Shown here in pieces: positions 28,271 to 34,712 of a stretch of 64,000 nt of DNA (positions are counted from its first letter, which is position 1; the number at the start of each line of letters is the position of its first letter). The position numbers and the translations under genes are program-made. The notes beneath the pieces were generated by a model, which was given only the letters and a program-made list of their open reading frames with translations, was not told where the DNA came from and searched no databases. The DNA comes from Squalus acanthias (taxonomy: Eukaryota): NCBI GenBank assembly GCA_030390025.1, contig JASTWF010000033.1, positions 2,668,001-2,732,000 on the forward strand. Reading direction: 5' to 3'.

Positions 28271-29049
28271 TGTTGCACCAAATTTCCACTGTCACCAATT
28301 TCCTCTTACACATTGTATAGCTTGCCACTCAATTTCGCAAATGCTCCATACTCTGCGCACACAGCTCTGTATGTACATACGAAATACGAACATAAGACTT
28401 AGGAGCAGGGGTAGGCCACTCGGCCCCTACAGCCTGCACCGCCATTCAATAAGATCGTGGCTGATCTGATTACTTCACATTTCCATCTACCCCCGATAAC
28501 CTTTCAGCCACTTGCTTATCAAGAATCTATCTACCTCTGCCTTGATAATATTCAATGACTCTGCTTCCATCGCACTCTTAGGAAGAGAGTTGCAAAGACT
28601 CACGACCCTCTGTTAGAAAAAAAAATCTCTTCATTTCTGTCTTAAATTGGCGACCACTTATCTTTAAACAGTGACCCCTACTTCTAGATTCTCCCACAAG
28701 AGGCAACATACTCTCCACATCCACCCTATCAAGTCCCCTCAGGATCTTAGATGTTTCAATCAAGTCACCACTTACTCTTCTAAACTCCAGCGGATAAAAG
28801 CCTAGCCTGTCCAAATTTCCTCATAAGACAACACGCCCATTCCAGGTATTAGTCTAGTAAACCTTCTTTAAACTGCTTCCAACGCATTTACATCCTTTCT
28901 TAAATAAGGAGACCAATACTGTACACAGTAATCCAGAAGTGCCCTGTATACTTGAAGCATAACCTCCCTACATTTGTATTCAATTCCCTCGAAATATACA
29001 ATAACATTCTATTTGCTCTCCTAATTACTTTCTGTACCTGCATACTAAC

Positions 29050-29243
29050 TGTCGTAAGAATGAGCCTTACGCGTGGTGAACTTAAAGTAAGCTTTTATCA
29101 ACTAAAAAGGTGCTACATACAAAAGAGGTCTTACTCTATGACTCTCCAGGATTCAACTGATCAGCCCAGTATTTATCCTGGACTAATCACAGGAAGTGAT
29201 GTAATAAAGTTCAAGTCACAGGAAGCTGTATTGTGTTACCACA
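29050..29243 (-). repeat. 3' LTR of the Gypsy element
   Basis: Direct repeat of 33338-33531 with TG/CA ends and an adjacent PPT. Confidence 0.97.
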
Positions 29244-29308
29244 TTCTCCCCCCGCAAAAAAGATTAGGAGGCCGGGATGAAGTTCGAGTCACAGGAAGCT
29301 GTATTGTG

Positions 29309-32300
29309 TTACCACATTCTCCCTCCATTTCGTAGCCGCTGGACGAGGGAGAGCCGCACCCGTTTGGGTTCTCGTAGCGGTAGAGGGCCCCTAGCCCGTT
29401 TACCCGCCGCGGGCCGTGGACCAGAGTCCGAGTGATCCAGCCCGATCTGTGAGGGGTAAGGACGATCCTGACTGTGTACTGGTGCCCGAACGGGTGTCGG
29501 GCAGGGCTGTGGCAGTTCCGTTTCCGAGCGTATGGTACGGGGTGGATCGTGGCTGCGCGTGCGAGCCCCGACGGGCTCATAGTCAGTCTGCCCCAGGTCG
29601 GCACGCTGGAGTGAGGTACCAGCCGGTGTCAGAGCCAGATCGTGATGAGAGGCACCTGGCGAGCCCAGAGATGTGCCTGGTACAATATCATCCCCTGGTG
29701 TCCCTCTATGTTTCGGCGGGCAGGGAGCCAGATCCCGCAATGACATGGTAGTTTCCCGACCGTCAGGATACCGAATATAGGTGTAGGTAGGGTTGACGTC
29801 AGTGAGCTCAACCTCATCTACCAGGGGGTCATTCTTAGACGCCCGAACATATCTTCGGAGTAGCACTGGTCCCGGTGCAGTCAGCCACGACGGGAGAGAT
29901 ATCCCATAGGATGAGCGCCGCTGAAATCGGAAGAACCGTTCATGAGGCGTCATATTTGTGGCGGTCGAAAGGAGGTACCATGTGGAGTGTAATGCGTCTG
30001 GAAGTACTGCTTCCCATTGCTGGTTGGGTAGGCCCCGAGATCTCAAAGCCAGACGTACCGCATTCCAGATGGTAGCGTTAAAACGCTCGACTTGCCCATT
30101 CCCGACCGGATGATAAGGCGTCGTTCTGCTGGCAGCAATACCCCGTTCGGAGAGATAGGCCTTGAGTTCTCCTGATATAAAAGAAGGGCCCCGATCCGAA
30201 TGAACATAGGATGACATGCCACAGAAAGCAAATACCTGCTCAAGGCAGCTGATAACCGTGGTCGTCAGCATATTGGGGCAGGGAAAGGCAAACGGAAAAC
30301 GGGAATACTCATCGACCATGGTCAATAGATAAGTGTTGCGAGTTGAAGAGGGCAACGGCCCCTTAAAATCGATGCTAAGCCGTTGCATTGGCTGGGTCGC
30401 ATGTATGAGTATACCACCCGAGGGGCGGAAAAACTGAGGTTTCAATTCCGCACAGACTCTGCAGTCCGAGCACATCTTCTTTACATCCCCGGTAGAGAAT
30501 GGGAGATTTCGGGACCGCACGAAGTGTAGCATGCGAGTAACGCCCGGATGACACAACCCATCATGGATGTCTACGAGCGTAGAGGGTGCCATGGCGGAGC
30601 AGAATGCTCGTGTGAGGGTATCCGGAGCCACATTCTCCTTGCCAGGTCGATAGTGGATGGTGTAACCAAAAGAGGCCAATTCCAGCCGCCAAAGCTGGAT
30701 TTTATTATTTTTAATTTTGGTCCGTTTTCGATTATCGAGCATGAAGGCGACCGATCGCTGGTCCGTGATTAAGGTAAAGTGCTGGCGAGCTAGGAGATGA
30801 GTCCACTTCCGTACTGCCTCTATGATGGCTGTAGCTTCTTTCTCGACTGGAGGATAATGTAGCTCAGCCCCTTGAAAAGTCCTGGACAAAAATGCCACCG
30901 GACGACCTTCCTGATTCAGAGTGGCCGAGATCGCCACCTCCGAGGCATCACACTCAACAACAAAAGGAAGACTCTCATCGATGGAGTGAAGAGCCGCTTT
31001 CTCCAACTGTTTTTTCAGGAGGTTAAAGGCTGCAACAGCCGCTGTGTCTAGTGGGAATGTGCTGGCCTTCAGTAGAGGTTGGATTCGGTCCGAGAAGTTA
31101 GGAATCCATTTAGCATAGTATGCAAACAGGCCGAGGGCCCGGCACAAGGAGGCCGGATTCTTAGGTGGCGGGAGTTCTTGGAGTGGGCGAAGCCTTTCAG
31201 GGTCAGGTTTAATGATGCCATTGCCCACACAATAGCCAAGGATGTTGATGGTTGGTTGTGACTCAATGGATTTAGCCGCATTTAATGTCAAATTACGGTG
31301 CTGGAGTGCATCCCAAAATCGTTGGAGATTGGCGTCATGTTCCCGCTGATTGCGACCTGCGACAGTAATATTGTCCAGATAAGGAAACGTATCCTTTAAG
31401 TCTTCCTGTTTGACCAGGTCATCCATTGCTCGCTGGAAGACAGCCACTCCATTAGTGACCCCAAAGGGGAGGCGACGAAATTGATACAGCCGTCCATTGG
31501 CTTCAAAGGCCGTATACTGCTTGTCTGAGACCTTCAAGGGTACCTGATGATAGGCACTTTTCAGATCATATGTTGAGAACACCGTGTACTCAGCCAGTTT
31601 ATTAACCATATCATCGATGCGCGGCAATGGGTATGCGTCCAAGTCCGTATATTGATTGATGGTCTGTGAATAGTCAATGCACAGCCGTTTCTTATGAGGT
31701 TGTAGAGGGTTCTTAACAATAACGACCTGGGCGCGCCATGGCGACGAACAAGGCTCGATGATATCCTCTGCTAAAAGCCGAGAAATCTCAGCCGCAATAA
31801 AAGACTGGTCTTCCTGACTGAAACGTCGTGACTTTGTTATAATCGGTTTGCATCGAGGAGGGATAATGGTAAACAGTGAGGGTTCATCCAGTGAAGCTGC
31901 TGACAATGCACAGAACGGTAATCGAGGTCGTATATTAGAAATAGTGAGTTCAGGTTTGGATCCGCCGAACTCAATGGTGAGCTTCTTATGCTGCTTTTGA
32001 AAATCTAGCCCTAAGATAAGATCACTACATAAGTCCTTGAGCACCGAAAGCCGGGTGGAGGGATACCTGTGACCATTAAGTGTTATTTCAACCATACAAA
32101 AGCCAGAAATTCTGGTATTAAGTGATGACTGCGCCATCGCAATTGCCTGGTCCGATGGGAAAACATGTAGCTTTAACTCTGCAACAATCTGTTCCCTAAT
32201 GAAACTATCAGTGCTACATGAGTCAATTAAGGCATCTAAAGTATGTCCATTAATTGATGCTTTTGTAGCTGCATGGAATATGTTCTGAGGACAAGCAGCT

Positions 32301-33259
32301 GTAATTGGTGTCGTTGCACAAAGAGTGGCTGAAACTCTAGGTGTGTTTCTTCGAGAGAAAACCCGAGAGGAAGCACGATAGATTTTAGCCGGAACATCTT
32401 GATAGGCCCTTACCGGGGCAGTTCGGTAGGACTTAGCTTCATAAGCCCTCGTAGAGGCTCTTGATAGGCAAACCTTTGCAAAATGACCCTTTTTGTTGCA
32501 ATGACTGCAAAACGCATTGCGAGCAGGGCAGAATTTCCGAGGGTGAAACTCATCACCACAAAAGAAGCATTTCTTACATTGCCAAGAGGCTGCCACAGTG
32601 GGGTCATCATCCTCTTCATCAGTGAAGTCATCAGATTGATCGTCAGGGATAAAGTCCTCCCTAATAGAGTTCACCTGTGGCCTCTTAAATTGCCTGACTG
32701 TAGTTAAGGCAGCAGACCGAGGTCTGGGCACTGTATAAAGGTCTGCATTTCTTTTTGCCAGATCTAGAGAGCAAGCCATGTCATAAGCTCTCTGAAGCTC
32801 AATTGTCTTACTTTCCAGTAGACACTGGCGTATAAATGGGGAGGCAAGCCCGCAGATGAAAGCATCACGGATCATTTCTTCACGGTACAGCTCAGCTGAG
32901 GCCGCCTGAAAGTTACAGTCCATACTAAGTCTGCGAAGCTCTTGGAGGAATTTATCAATGGATTCCTCCGGCCCTTGTTGGGCTGTAGCTAGTAGATGTC
33001 TGGCATAGACCTCATTCGGTGTCTTAGTATATAGTCTTTTAAGCGTCCGAATTGCCTCCTCGTAACTGCCCCATTCCTCGACATACTGAAATACATTCGG
33101 GGTGACACAGTTGATGAGTATCCGCAATTTTGAATCATCATCAGCCTTGCAATATTCGAGAAAATTGTCAAACGTGCGATAGCAGTGTTTCCACACCTTA
33201 CCGGCTGCTGGGGTGTTTGGGTCCAAGTCAAGACGCGATGGTTTAAGGATGTTTTCCAT
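29309..33259 (-). CDS. Gag-Pol polyprotein, 1316 aa (zinc knuckles, protease, RT, RNase H, integrase)
   Basis: CFFCGDEFHPRKFCPARNAFCSHCNKKGHFAKVC; ALIDSCS; RLCIDY, YDLKSAYHQ, LPFG, YLDN; ECDAS, EKEATA, TDQ; H..H...C..C; IDFKGP, HSDRG, GQVERFN. The domain order RT-RH-IN is that of Ty3/Gypsy. Confidence 0.95.
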   Translation of the reverse strand: MENILKPSRLDLDPNTPAAGKVWKHCYRTFDNFLEYCKADDDSKLRILINCVTPNVFQYVEEWGSYEEAIRTLKRLYTKTPNEVYARHLLATAQQGPEESIDKFLQELRRLSMDCNFQAASAELYREEMIRDAFICGLASPFIRQCLLESKTIELQRAYDMACSLDLAKRNADLYTVPRPRSAALTTVRQFKRPQVNSIREDFIPDDQSDDFTDEEDDDPTVAASWQCKKCFFCGDEFHPRKFCPARNAFCSHCNKKGHFAKVCLSRASTRAYEAKSYRTAPVRAYQDVPAKIYRASSRVFSRRNTPRVSATLCATTPITAACPQNIFHAATKASINGHTLDALIDSCSTDSFIREQIVAELKLHVFPSDQAIAMAQSSLNTRISGFCMVEITLNGHRYPSTRLSVLKDLCSDLILGLDFQKQHKKLTIEFGGSKPELTISNIRPRLPFCALSAASLDEPSLFTIIPPRCKPIITKSRRFSQEDQSFIAAEISRLLAEDIIEPCSSPWRAQVVIVKNPLQPHKKRLCIDYSQTINQYTDLDAYPLPRIDDMVNKLAEYTVFSTYDLKSAYHQVPLKVSDKQYTAFEANGRLYQFRRLPFGVTNGVAVFQRAMDDLVKQEDLKDTFPYLDNITVAGRNQREHDANLQRFWDALQHRNLTLNAAKSIESQPTINILGYCVGNGIIKPDPERLRPLQELPPPKNPASLCRALGLFAYYAKWIPNFSDRIQPLLKASTFPLDTAAVAAFNLLKKQLEKAALHSIDESLPFVVECDASEVAISATLNQEGRPVAFLSRTFQGAELHYPPVEKEATAIIEAVRKWTHLLARQHFTLITDQRSVAFMLDNRKRTKIKNNKIQLWRLELASFGYTIHYRPGKENVAPDTLTRAFCSAMAPSTLVDIHDGLCHPGVTRMLHFVRSRNLPFSTGDVKKMCSDCRVCAELKPQFFRPSGGILIHATQPMQRLSIDFKGPLPSSTRNTYLLTMVDEYSRFPFAFPCPNMLTTTVISCLEQVFAFCGMSSYVHSDRGPSFISGELKAYLSERGIAASRTTPYHPVGNGQVERFNATIWNAVRLALRSRGLPNQQWEAVLPDALHSTWYLLSTATNMTPHERFFRFQRRSSYGISLPSWLTAPGPVLLRRYVRASKNDPLVDEVELTDVNPTYTYIRYPDGRETTMSLRDLAPCPPKHRGTPGDDIVPGTSLGSPGASHHDLALTPAGTSLQRADLGQTDYEPVGARTRSHDPPRTIRSETELPQPCPTPVRAPVHSQDRPYPSQIGLDHSDSGPRPAAGKRARGPLPLREPKRVRLSLVQRLRNGGRMW

Positions 33260-33325
33260 GATGGGTGATTCCCTGGACCCTTAGTTCCGAGTTCGTCCAA
33301 AAAGTTTGAGTGCGAAGTTTTTCAA

Positions 33326-33336
33326 AGTTGATTAAA
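33326..33336 (-). promoter_or_regulatory. Non-tRNA primer-binding site (TTTAATCAACT), complementary to LTR positions 33381-33391
   Basis: It sits 1 nt inside the 5' LTR boundary, has no TGG, and forms a perfect 11-bp inverted repeat with an LTR-internal sequence. Confidence 0.75.
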
Positions 33337-33337
33337 T

Positions 33338-33531
33338 TGTCGTAAGAATGAGCCTTATGCGTGGTGAACTTAAAGTAAGCTTTAATCAACTAAAAAGGTG
33401 CTACATACAAAAGAGGTTTTACTCTATGCCTCTCCAGGATTCAACTGATCAGCCCAGTATTTATCCTGGACTAATCACAGGAAGTGATGTAATAAAGTTC
33501 AAGTCACAGGAAGCTGTATTGTGTTACCACA
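33338..33531 (-). repeat. 5' LTR of the Gypsy element
   Basis: Direct repeat of 29050-29243, upstream of the gag ATG at 33259. Confidence 0.97.
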
Positions 33532-34712
33532 CTAACATTTTGCGATTCATGCACTGTGACAAACAGATCCCTCTGCATTTAAGAGCTCTGCAATCTCTCA
33601 CGATTTAGATAATATGCTTCTCTTTTATTCTTCCTGCAAAAATGGAAAATTTAACATTTTCCCACATTATTCTATTTACCTTTTACAAGCACTCTACTTA
33701 CAATTAGTCTGTCAACTTCCACCCACAACAATTCTCTCCCAGTCATTCGCCCAATTACAGCTGATTGACTGTTAAATGTAAAGTGCCACTGACTTGCAGA
33801 TTAAAGTAATTTTTTAATGTATTAAAGTAAGAAAAGTATGTACAATTTCAGCTGGATAAGAACACTCTCTGTTGAATTTACTCACTATTTACCACTTTCA
33901 CCAAATCAGTCATTGCGGTTCAGATATCAGGAGAAAGAGTTTGGTCAGGTGCAATTTTGGCCCTTGAAAACTGATTATCGTGATATTGTCAATGAATATA
34001 AGAAAGTGGCGGACATGTTGAATAATTACTTTGCATCAGTATCTGCAGTAGTGGAAGAGGACAACATGCCGGAAATCACAAGCAAACTTATATTGAGTCT
34101 AGGACTCAACAAAATTAATGTATGCAGAATAACAGTGATTGATAAAATAATGTCACGAAAGAGTGACAAATCCCCAGGACCAGATGGTTCCATCCCAGGG
34201 ATTTAAAGGAAGTAGGTGAGCACATTGCAGGTGACTTAACTATAAAGTTCCAAATTTCTCTCGATTCAGGCATTGTCCCTTAATGTTTGGAAAATTGCGC
34301 ATGTCTCTCCGCTATTTTAGAATGGTGAGAGAGGGAAACCAGGAAATTATAGACCAGCTATCCTAAAATCTGTTCTAGGTAAATTACTAGAGTCTATAAT
34401 TAAGGATAGGGTGACTGAACATCTTGAATTTTTTCAGCTGATCAGAGAGAGCCAGCATGTATTTATGAATGGTAGATCATGCCTGACGAAGCTAATCCAA
34501 CTTTTTGACGAGTTGACTAAAGTAGCGCACAGTGGAATGTCAACGGATGTTATTTATATGGACTTCCAGAAGGCACTTGATGAAGTCCCTCATAAGAGCC
34601 TGTTAACTAAGGTTGAAGTGGTCATGATGCGGAGATGCCGGTGTTGGACTGGGGTGGACAAAATTGAGAGGTCGCACAACACCAGGTTATAGTCCAACAG
34701 TTTTATTTGAAA

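Follow-up and report, generated by a model that had tools for sequence, protein, structure and literature searches.

The window, by which we mean the whole 64,000-nt stretch of Squalus acanthias DNA analysed here (contig JASTWF010000033.1, positions 2,668,001 to 2,732,000), harbors on its minus strand an LTR retrotransposon that is complete and measures 4,482 nt (33531-29050). The order PR-RT-RNase H-IN, the TG..CA LTRs and a 5-bp GTTAG target-site duplication identify it as a Ty3/gypsy element (Metaviridae). All features given below lie on the minus strand. The duplication was found by sequence reading at 33532-33536, beside the 5' LTR, and at 29045-29049, beside the 3' LTR. Repeat search combined with sequence reading delimited a 5' LTR of 194 nt (TGTGG...ACGACA; 33338-33531) and a 3' LTR (29050-29243), which are mismatched at 4 of 194 positions (103, 114, 148 and 174). 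Between them, a single gag-pol ORF of 1,316 aa extends over 29309-33259 (ATG at 33259, stop codon TAA at 29311-29309), the frame amounting to 1,323 aa when counted from stop to stop (translation P0001). Two CCHC knuckles are present at 32569-32528 and 32509-32468 (residues 238-251 and 258-271 of P0001). They are followed by Pfam matches, with coordinates converted from P0001 residues, to PR (aspartyl protease; 32263-32000), RT (RVT_1; 31693-31232), RNase H (30976-30668), an integrase zinc domain (30580-30437) and the integrase core (30397-30107). P0001 has no Pfam match to a chromodomain (PF00385) at E<=0.01, in agreement with an earlier note on this DNA, which described a double zinc knuckle and no visible chromodomain.

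The polypurine tract, GGGGGGAGAA (29244-29253; sequence reading), abuts the 3' LTR. Just upstream of this true tract and LTR, an internal duplicate of the polypurine tract and the first ~37 nt of the LTR was recognized by sequence reading (29280-29326), and the gag-pol stop codon sits within it. In contigs of sequencing runs X1 and X5, 39 nt are skipped at this duplicate (joint 29279>29319). Two copies of the word CTTCCTGTGA, ~29 nt apart, are located in the upstream portion of the LTR (33512-33503 and 33483-33474; LTR nt 20-29 and 49-58). On the other strand it reads as an ETS-like word with a GGAA core, and it could be a promoter element.

Self-complementarity at the putative primer-binding site

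Downstream of the terminal CA of the 5' LTR there is a single A (33337), followed by the putative primer-binding site, TTTAATCAACT (33336-33326). This 11-mer is the exact reverse complement of AGTTGATTAAA, an LTR-internal motif and putative self-primer that lies 44 nt upstream (33391-33381; LTR nt 141-151); counted back from the LTR end, the motif begins at base 54. Its last six nucleotides are ATTAAA and its sequence context is TTTTTAGTTG. Pairing ends at 11 bp on both sides, at T/T (33392/33325) and G/A (33380/33337). Sequence reading thereby bears out the central observation of the earlier note, that the primer site lacks TGG and is an exact 11-nt reverse complement of a motif in the element's own LTR. 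When all 4,087 internal 11-mers were compared with the LTR, the primer site alone had a reverse complement there; in mononucleotide shuffles of the LTR, the complement was present in 27 of 200,000. The single-sequence minimum free energy fold of a 76-nt stretch uses the helix (-10.8 kcal/mol, z -1.93), and 7 of 200 shuffles folded as well.

One of the four LTR mismatches falls within the motif, as had also been noticed earlier: at LTR position 148, the 3' LTR copy (29103-29093) reads AGTTGATAAAA, with the hexamer ATAAAA. This T>A change is private to the window insertion, the contigs of two other runs having ATTAAA at the same place (29096).

A young family in the host genome

A 241-nt LTR-leader query returned 1,747 first-look candidates from the 3.71-Gb assembly, and all 40 that were scored were 98-100% identical. 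First-look candidates for a pol query numbered 22,935, some of which may come from other Gypsy families; the 51 matches that were scored all belonged to the family of the window element, 31 of them within a 1,315-aa open frame and 49 with no stop inside the match. The family is young, abundant and recently moving. Both 11-mers were unchanged in 30 of 30 other 5' LTR copies from the genome, so that primer site and LTR motif show no covariation within the family. Since the copies are 98-99% alike and can hold no such signal inside the genome, the test was moved to divergent relatives. A second related family in the same genome was sought with a shark protein of 59% identity, and all 51 scored matches again belonged to the same family, at 61% identity.

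Sequence near-identical to 29050-33531 (0.6-0.72 of sampled words) occurs in runs of five organism codes (A-E), which could mean close host relatives or recent spread. Metatranscriptome run X9 yielded three short internal contigs of the element at a depth of ~3. The contigs of runs X1 and X5, which were guessed to be RNA, also span the element flanks and look like DNA.

Distribution and structure of related elements

A protein search with the RT-IN region scored 8,000 candidates, of which 2,084 matched at E<=0.001, and the best 120 listed were 54-88% identical. Named hosts among these 120 were Trichuris, Palaemon, Caligus, Clavelina, Actinostola, Mytilus and Scyliorhinus, so that cnidarians, molluscs, crustaceans, nematodes, tunicates and a shark are represented among the named host groups. 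Twenty relative proteins were aligned (alignment A1) and served to fetch DNA from metagenome contigs: 600 matched stretches were obtained, 510 of them encoded a relative, and 80 loci were kept. The relatives on environmental contigs are 48-74% identical in RT-IN and show the same layout with different letters; loci at 39-52% identity are for the most part decayed. In loci that retain both LTRs, these measure ~160-225 nt and lie ~3.8-4.0 kb apart. Target duplications of 5 bp set the LTR end at CA in eight insertions, namely the window element and, by visual reading, L037, L038, L039, L041/L042, L054, L057 and L090. None of the 20 aligned relatives has a chromodomain match (PF00385) at E<=0.01. 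The earlier note had proposed a separate self-priming lineage in a vertebrate. The non-chromoviral character of such a lineage is upheld by the element and by 20 of 20 relatives, and the self-complementary design extends beyond vertebrates to relatives from the range of animal hosts named above.

Several ~4-kb environmental contigs (L031, L035, L036, L046, L065 and L092) are circular permutations with one LTR, their ends overlapping inside gag or the LTR, as expected from a collapsed assembly of tandem or one-LTR forms. Among loci shorter than 7 kb, no contigs were found that start at the motif or end in polyA. The WLWD assembly, filed as a metagenome (L037-L042, L054, L057, L088, L090 and L099), contains at least three families, with LTR pairs that are mostly 96-99.5% identical.

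Covariation between the LTR motif and the primer site

In the relatives, the sequence one base past the LTR is the reverse complement of an LTR-internal motif located 24-70 nt upstream, and the letters differ between them. Motif and primer site read TTTAGCTAGTTAAA and TTTAACTAGCTAAA in L032, TGAGTCGTTTAAA and TTTAAACGACTCA in L034, TAAGCTGTTAAAA and TTTTAACAGCTTA in L039, TTTCTAGTCGAATAAA and TTTATTCGACTAGAAA in L057, and ATTATGTTGCTGATTAAA and TTTAATCAGCAACATAAT in L036. Altogether, 19 distinct primer-site sequences were counted. To assess a named helix of 18 pairs, 19 non-identical rows were aligned with MAFFT (A2); these rows are related, and ten of the loci come from one assembly (WLWD) with three families. 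In this helix, 84.9% of cells are paired, as against 26.9-48.7% when the partners are slid by 1-3 columns, and both sides change in 14 of the 18 pairs. The covariation score was 0.441, a value reached by none of 500 shuffles, versus 0.159 after shuffling. The window motif corresponds to A2 columns 8-18, which covary with columns 89-99. With the alignment as its only input, RNAalifold returned a helix of 13 pairs that occupies the same columns, nine of the pairs showing compensatory changes. A covariance model built from A2 recovered cases outside its training set, L094 (44.1 bits) and, with one mismatch each, L070 and L086; it also found the decayed copies L099 and L071.

An independent anchor was provided by the gag N-terminus, located by tblastn and present in 27 of the 80 loci. 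A duplex of 11-19 bp with at most one mismatch lies just upstream of gag in 23 of these 27. The self-complementary design spans the ends of the permuted contigs in L043 and L065, the decayed L099 has a 1-nt deletion in the primer site, and in L098, one of the 27 gag-anchored loci, no self-complementary design was seen. At a finer scale, L037 differs from its sister copies L041 and L054 by T for G in the motif of both LTRs and by a matching A for C in the primer site, a change that is coordinated in three places and was inherited through replication. Across divergent relatives, primer site and LTR motif therefore show strong compensatory covariation, as judged by A2, RNAalifold and gag anchoring. 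The AT-richness of the region (GC 0.31) and the modest fold z-score are what could be said for chance complementarity. That explanation is rejected by the 11-mer and shuffle controls, the A2 covariation, the RNAalifold helix and the gag-anchored loci, and its probability is negligible.

Register of the duplex and competing roles for the helix

The position of the duplex is nearly invariant. The order CA, one base, duplex was found in 17 of the 19 A2 rows, the intervening base being A in 16 rows and T in one. The exceptions are L046, with two bases, and L090, in which the CA is mutated in the 5' LTR and intact in the 3' LTR. DNA synthesis starts where the 3' end of a primer lies, and this accounts for a duplex that adjoins the LTR end in each of the families. 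The fixed register fits a primer and is not explained by a mere regulatory hairpin. Space is also limiting. When one mismatch is allowed, the L037-type, L039-type and L057 families have a duplex that extends as far as the gag ATG, and in L053, L070 and L086 it stops 2-5 nt short, which leaves no room for another primer site. On these sequence grounds, the RNA of the LTR motif is probably the primer of reverse transcription, so that this recently active, chromodomain-less Ty3/gypsy element would use its own RNA and not a host tRNA.

The helix also involves a possible processing signal. Every A2 row closes its 5' arm with a hexamer resembling a polyA signal, either ATTAAA or AATAAA or a variant (GTTAAA and TTTAAA are examples), and (A/G)CC follows. 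In LTR elements, promoter-proximal polyA signals need suppression, as is established for retroviruses. The helix could accordingly be a regulatory fold only, one that hides the polyA signal of the 5' LTR while something else primes. Such an account is unlikely. It offers no alternative primer site, since TGG is found past none of the LTRs and in several families the duplex extends to the gag ATG or stops no more than 5 nt short of it, and it does not say why the 3' arm starts one base past the terminal CA in 17 of 19 rows. Moreover, L032, L039 and L089 carry a further AATAAA or GATAAA down the loop, and there the paired hexamer may not be the working signal. Because the helix always covers a polyA-signal-like hexamer, masking may be a second role, and masking of ATTAAA beside priming is plausible for the window element.

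Another possibility is that the pairing serves a different step, such as genome dimerisation or packaging, RNA circularisation through the 3' copy of R, or assistance in strand transfer, and that the motif is not the primer. If the motif lies in R, it would also be found near the 3' end of the RNA, and sequence alone would not separate the 5' copy from the 3' copy. The argument from register applies here as it does to masking, and pairing in trans or with the 3' copy would still amount to self-priming in effect if a free 3'-OH were placed at the primer site. A role confined to these other steps appears slightly less likely again than masking alone. Priming by the element's own RNA is the reading retained below.

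Host tRNAs as possible alternative primers

A host small RNA with the sequence of the LTR motif, either a tRNA-internal fragment or some other RNA, could in principle take the place of the element's own transcript. Half-tRNA primers are known in copia lineages, according to an excerpt of PMC6317226. Without TGG at the primer site, a match to a tRNA 3' end is impossible. To cover other parts of tRNAs, an Rfam tRNA search of the genome was made, in which 63 of ~369,000 candidates were scored, one array dominating; the 20 loci fetched represent only Lys(UUU) and Cys(GCA) and are a very incomplete sample of the host tRNAs. Within this sample, no complement to the 24 nt past the LTR was longer than 5-6 nt on the sense strand. 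No host tRNAs were found within the window. The 7-nt word TTTAATC at the primer site is identical, not complementary, to the anticodon loop of tRNA-Lys(UUU). The 19 different primer sites each match their own LTR, and they include those of three families in one host assembly. Primer sites that differ between families in one host cannot be explained by a shared host RNA, and host priming is very improbable.

The word TTTAATC forms the first 7 nt of the primer site (33330-33336) and recurs in loci L141, L142 and others, the LTR motif being complementary to the tRNA-Lys(UUU) anticodon loop. Its identity to the loop is judged to be chance, because other families differ there. The tRNA-Lys(UUU) genes themselves are organized in regular arrays with a period of ~1.78 kb on host contigs C29, C2208, C1484 and C1516.

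Transcript start and neighboring stem

The motif begins in a conserved T-rich-AG-T context that resembles an initiator, columns 8-9 of A2 being A and G in 90% or more of the rows. The pairs at A2 columns 5-7 covary as well, and in most relatives pairing runs 2-7 nt further 5' than the equivalent of 33391, which indicates that the RNA starts further upstream in most of them. In Tf1, the primer is the first 11 nt of the mRNA; the extended pairing in the relatives implies, by contrast, that their primer need not be the very first 11 nt and may carry a 5' overhang. A start exactly at the equivalent of 33391 is consequently not favored as a general rule, and for the window element itself a start at precisely 33391 is proposed with much less confidence than the priming role of the motif. 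By visual reading, the TATA-like GATAAATA at LTR nt 67-74 would place the start ~40 nt upstream of the motif, and the weaker GTAAAAC at LTR nt 110-116 would place it at the motif; the reading of TATA-like words and initiator is inconsistent between families, the TATA-like words standing at differing distances.

Directly 3' of the motif, sequence reading suggests a possible, weak small hairpin, GCTTA-CTT-TAAGT (33368-33380). A stem RCCT..AGGY with differing inner letters starts from the first base past the motif in ~11 of 19 families by visual reading, and in fewer by minimum free energy folding. It was seen in L031-L035, L039, L053, L057, L065 and L094 at the same place as 33368-33380 in the window. 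The energies of these stems do not stand out from those of shuffles (fractions 0.08-0.5). A U5-IR-like stem-loop is reported to lie inside the Tf1 fold-back, to judge by the title of a 1998 paper by Lin and Levin, and the RCCT..AGGY stem might be its counterpart.

Discussion

To our knowledge, self-primed reverse transcription is proven only in fission-yeast elements of the Tf1 type. For LTR elements of vertebrate genomes, it was reportedly proposed by Butler and colleagues in 2001, with reference to the Tf1/sushi group.

The sequence features of the window element suggest a similar route. Transcription would begin within the 5' LTR, either at the motif or upstream of it, which would place the motif in R, and the motif would fold back onto the primer site. 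By analogy with Tf1, the RNase H of the element would then cleave the transcript on the motif's 3' side. The new 3'-OH (...UUAAA; RNA ending ...AGUUGAUUAAA) would prime a minus-strand strong-stop DNA of 44 nt, covering the single A and the last 43 nt of the LTR, and this DNA would be transferred to the copy of R at the 3' end of the RNA. One short motif would in this way act both as primer and as polyA signal, and the fold-back could also hide the signal in the 5' copy.

Self-priming of Tf1 and Tf2 is documented in excerpts of PMC4600332 and PMC5341516 as fold-back, RNase H cleavage at the duplex end, extension and transfer to the 3' R, and self-priming has been proposed for Tj1 of S. japonicus. 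As in Tf1 and Tf2 (Schizosaccharomyces pombe) and Tj1, the primer site beside the 5' LTR of the window element complements the element's own LTR-derived RNA and has no tRNA complement, and the core duplex of 11 bp is the same as in Tf1. Unlike these elements, the window element has no chromodomain, two CCHC knuckles and a very short LTR (194 nt) and leader; its putative primer overlaps a polyA-signal-like hexamer, and the duplex of its relatives extends over 11-19 bp. Excerpts of PMC6317226, PMC6934838 and PMC5006619 describe self-priming as a trait of Tf1/sushi chromoviruses from yeast and vertebrates, and as a prediction for plant Tcn1 and TAR. The vertebrate Tf1/sushi elements are chromoviruses, in contrast to the window element and 20 of 20 relatives, which lack a chromodomain match. 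Tcn1 (a plant chromovirus) and TAR (a plant copia element) have the same computational signature according to PMC6317226, in that a tRNA site is lacking and the primer site complements their own LTR; they belong to other superfamilies or clades and other hosts, and neither is a non-chromoviral animal Gypsy element.

The clade is probably the SURL-like Mag C-clade, a placement that follows published descriptions of that clade. None of the names Mag, SURL, Jule, Tf or sushi appeared among the top 120 of each of two protein searches. The accessions of SURL and Mag are M75723 and X17219, as listed in PMC3587641. Mag C LTRs average 174 nt and have the termini TGTNATRT...AYANAACA according to an excerpt of PMC3601003, and excerpts of PMC6238403 and PMC8556966 describe the C-clade as spread metazoan-wide. 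The LTR 3' ends of the relatives, CTACAACA and TCATAACA, match AYANAACA at 6-7 of 8 positions, and the LTR 5' ends TGTGGTAA and TGTTGTGC match TGTNATRT at ~6 of 8. Small size, a single-ORF gag-pol, two knuckles, short LTRs and the spread of the relatives across animal phyla also fit the Mag lineage and, within it, the C-clade. Mosquito elements of the Mag lineage have primer sites for tRNA-Leu, tRNA-Ser or tRNA-Arg, as given in an excerpt of PMC3286476, whereas no TGG-type site is present in the window or in the 19 A2 rows; a self-complementary site would consequently be a departure within the Mag lineage. Full-text searches found no literature that connects self-priming to the C-clade or to Mag, SURL or Jule; the first descriptions of SURL and Jule, Butler 2001 and the Levin papers lay outside the reach of these searches and might mention it.

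The evidence is best read as self-priming of the Tf1 kind in an animal-wide Gypsy clade outside the chromoviruses, with a primer that overlaps the polyA signal. The broader proposition, that a metazoan-wide non-chromoviral Gypsy clade (probably the SURL-like C-clade) gained a compact form of self-priming separately from Tf1/sushi, with one 11-19-nt motif as both primer and polyA signal, we regard as evenly balanced. As the family is young and abundant in the host genome, mapping of transcript ends should be feasible.

If the clade self-primes, the mechanism would be far commoner in animals than has been assumed, and it would have arisen or been kept outside the chromoviruses. Annotation would be affected too, in that tools seeking tRNA primer sites will miss or mis-delimit such elements. 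Small RNAs derived from tRNAs that act at primer sites have been discussed as a defense, according to an excerpt of PMC7472051, and the clade offers a natural test case for defenses of this kind. Elements primed by their own RNA would escape host defense aimed at tRNA primer sites, and the clade would be very successful in a vertebrate genome, as illustrated by ~1,750 first-look LTR candidates and many intact frames.
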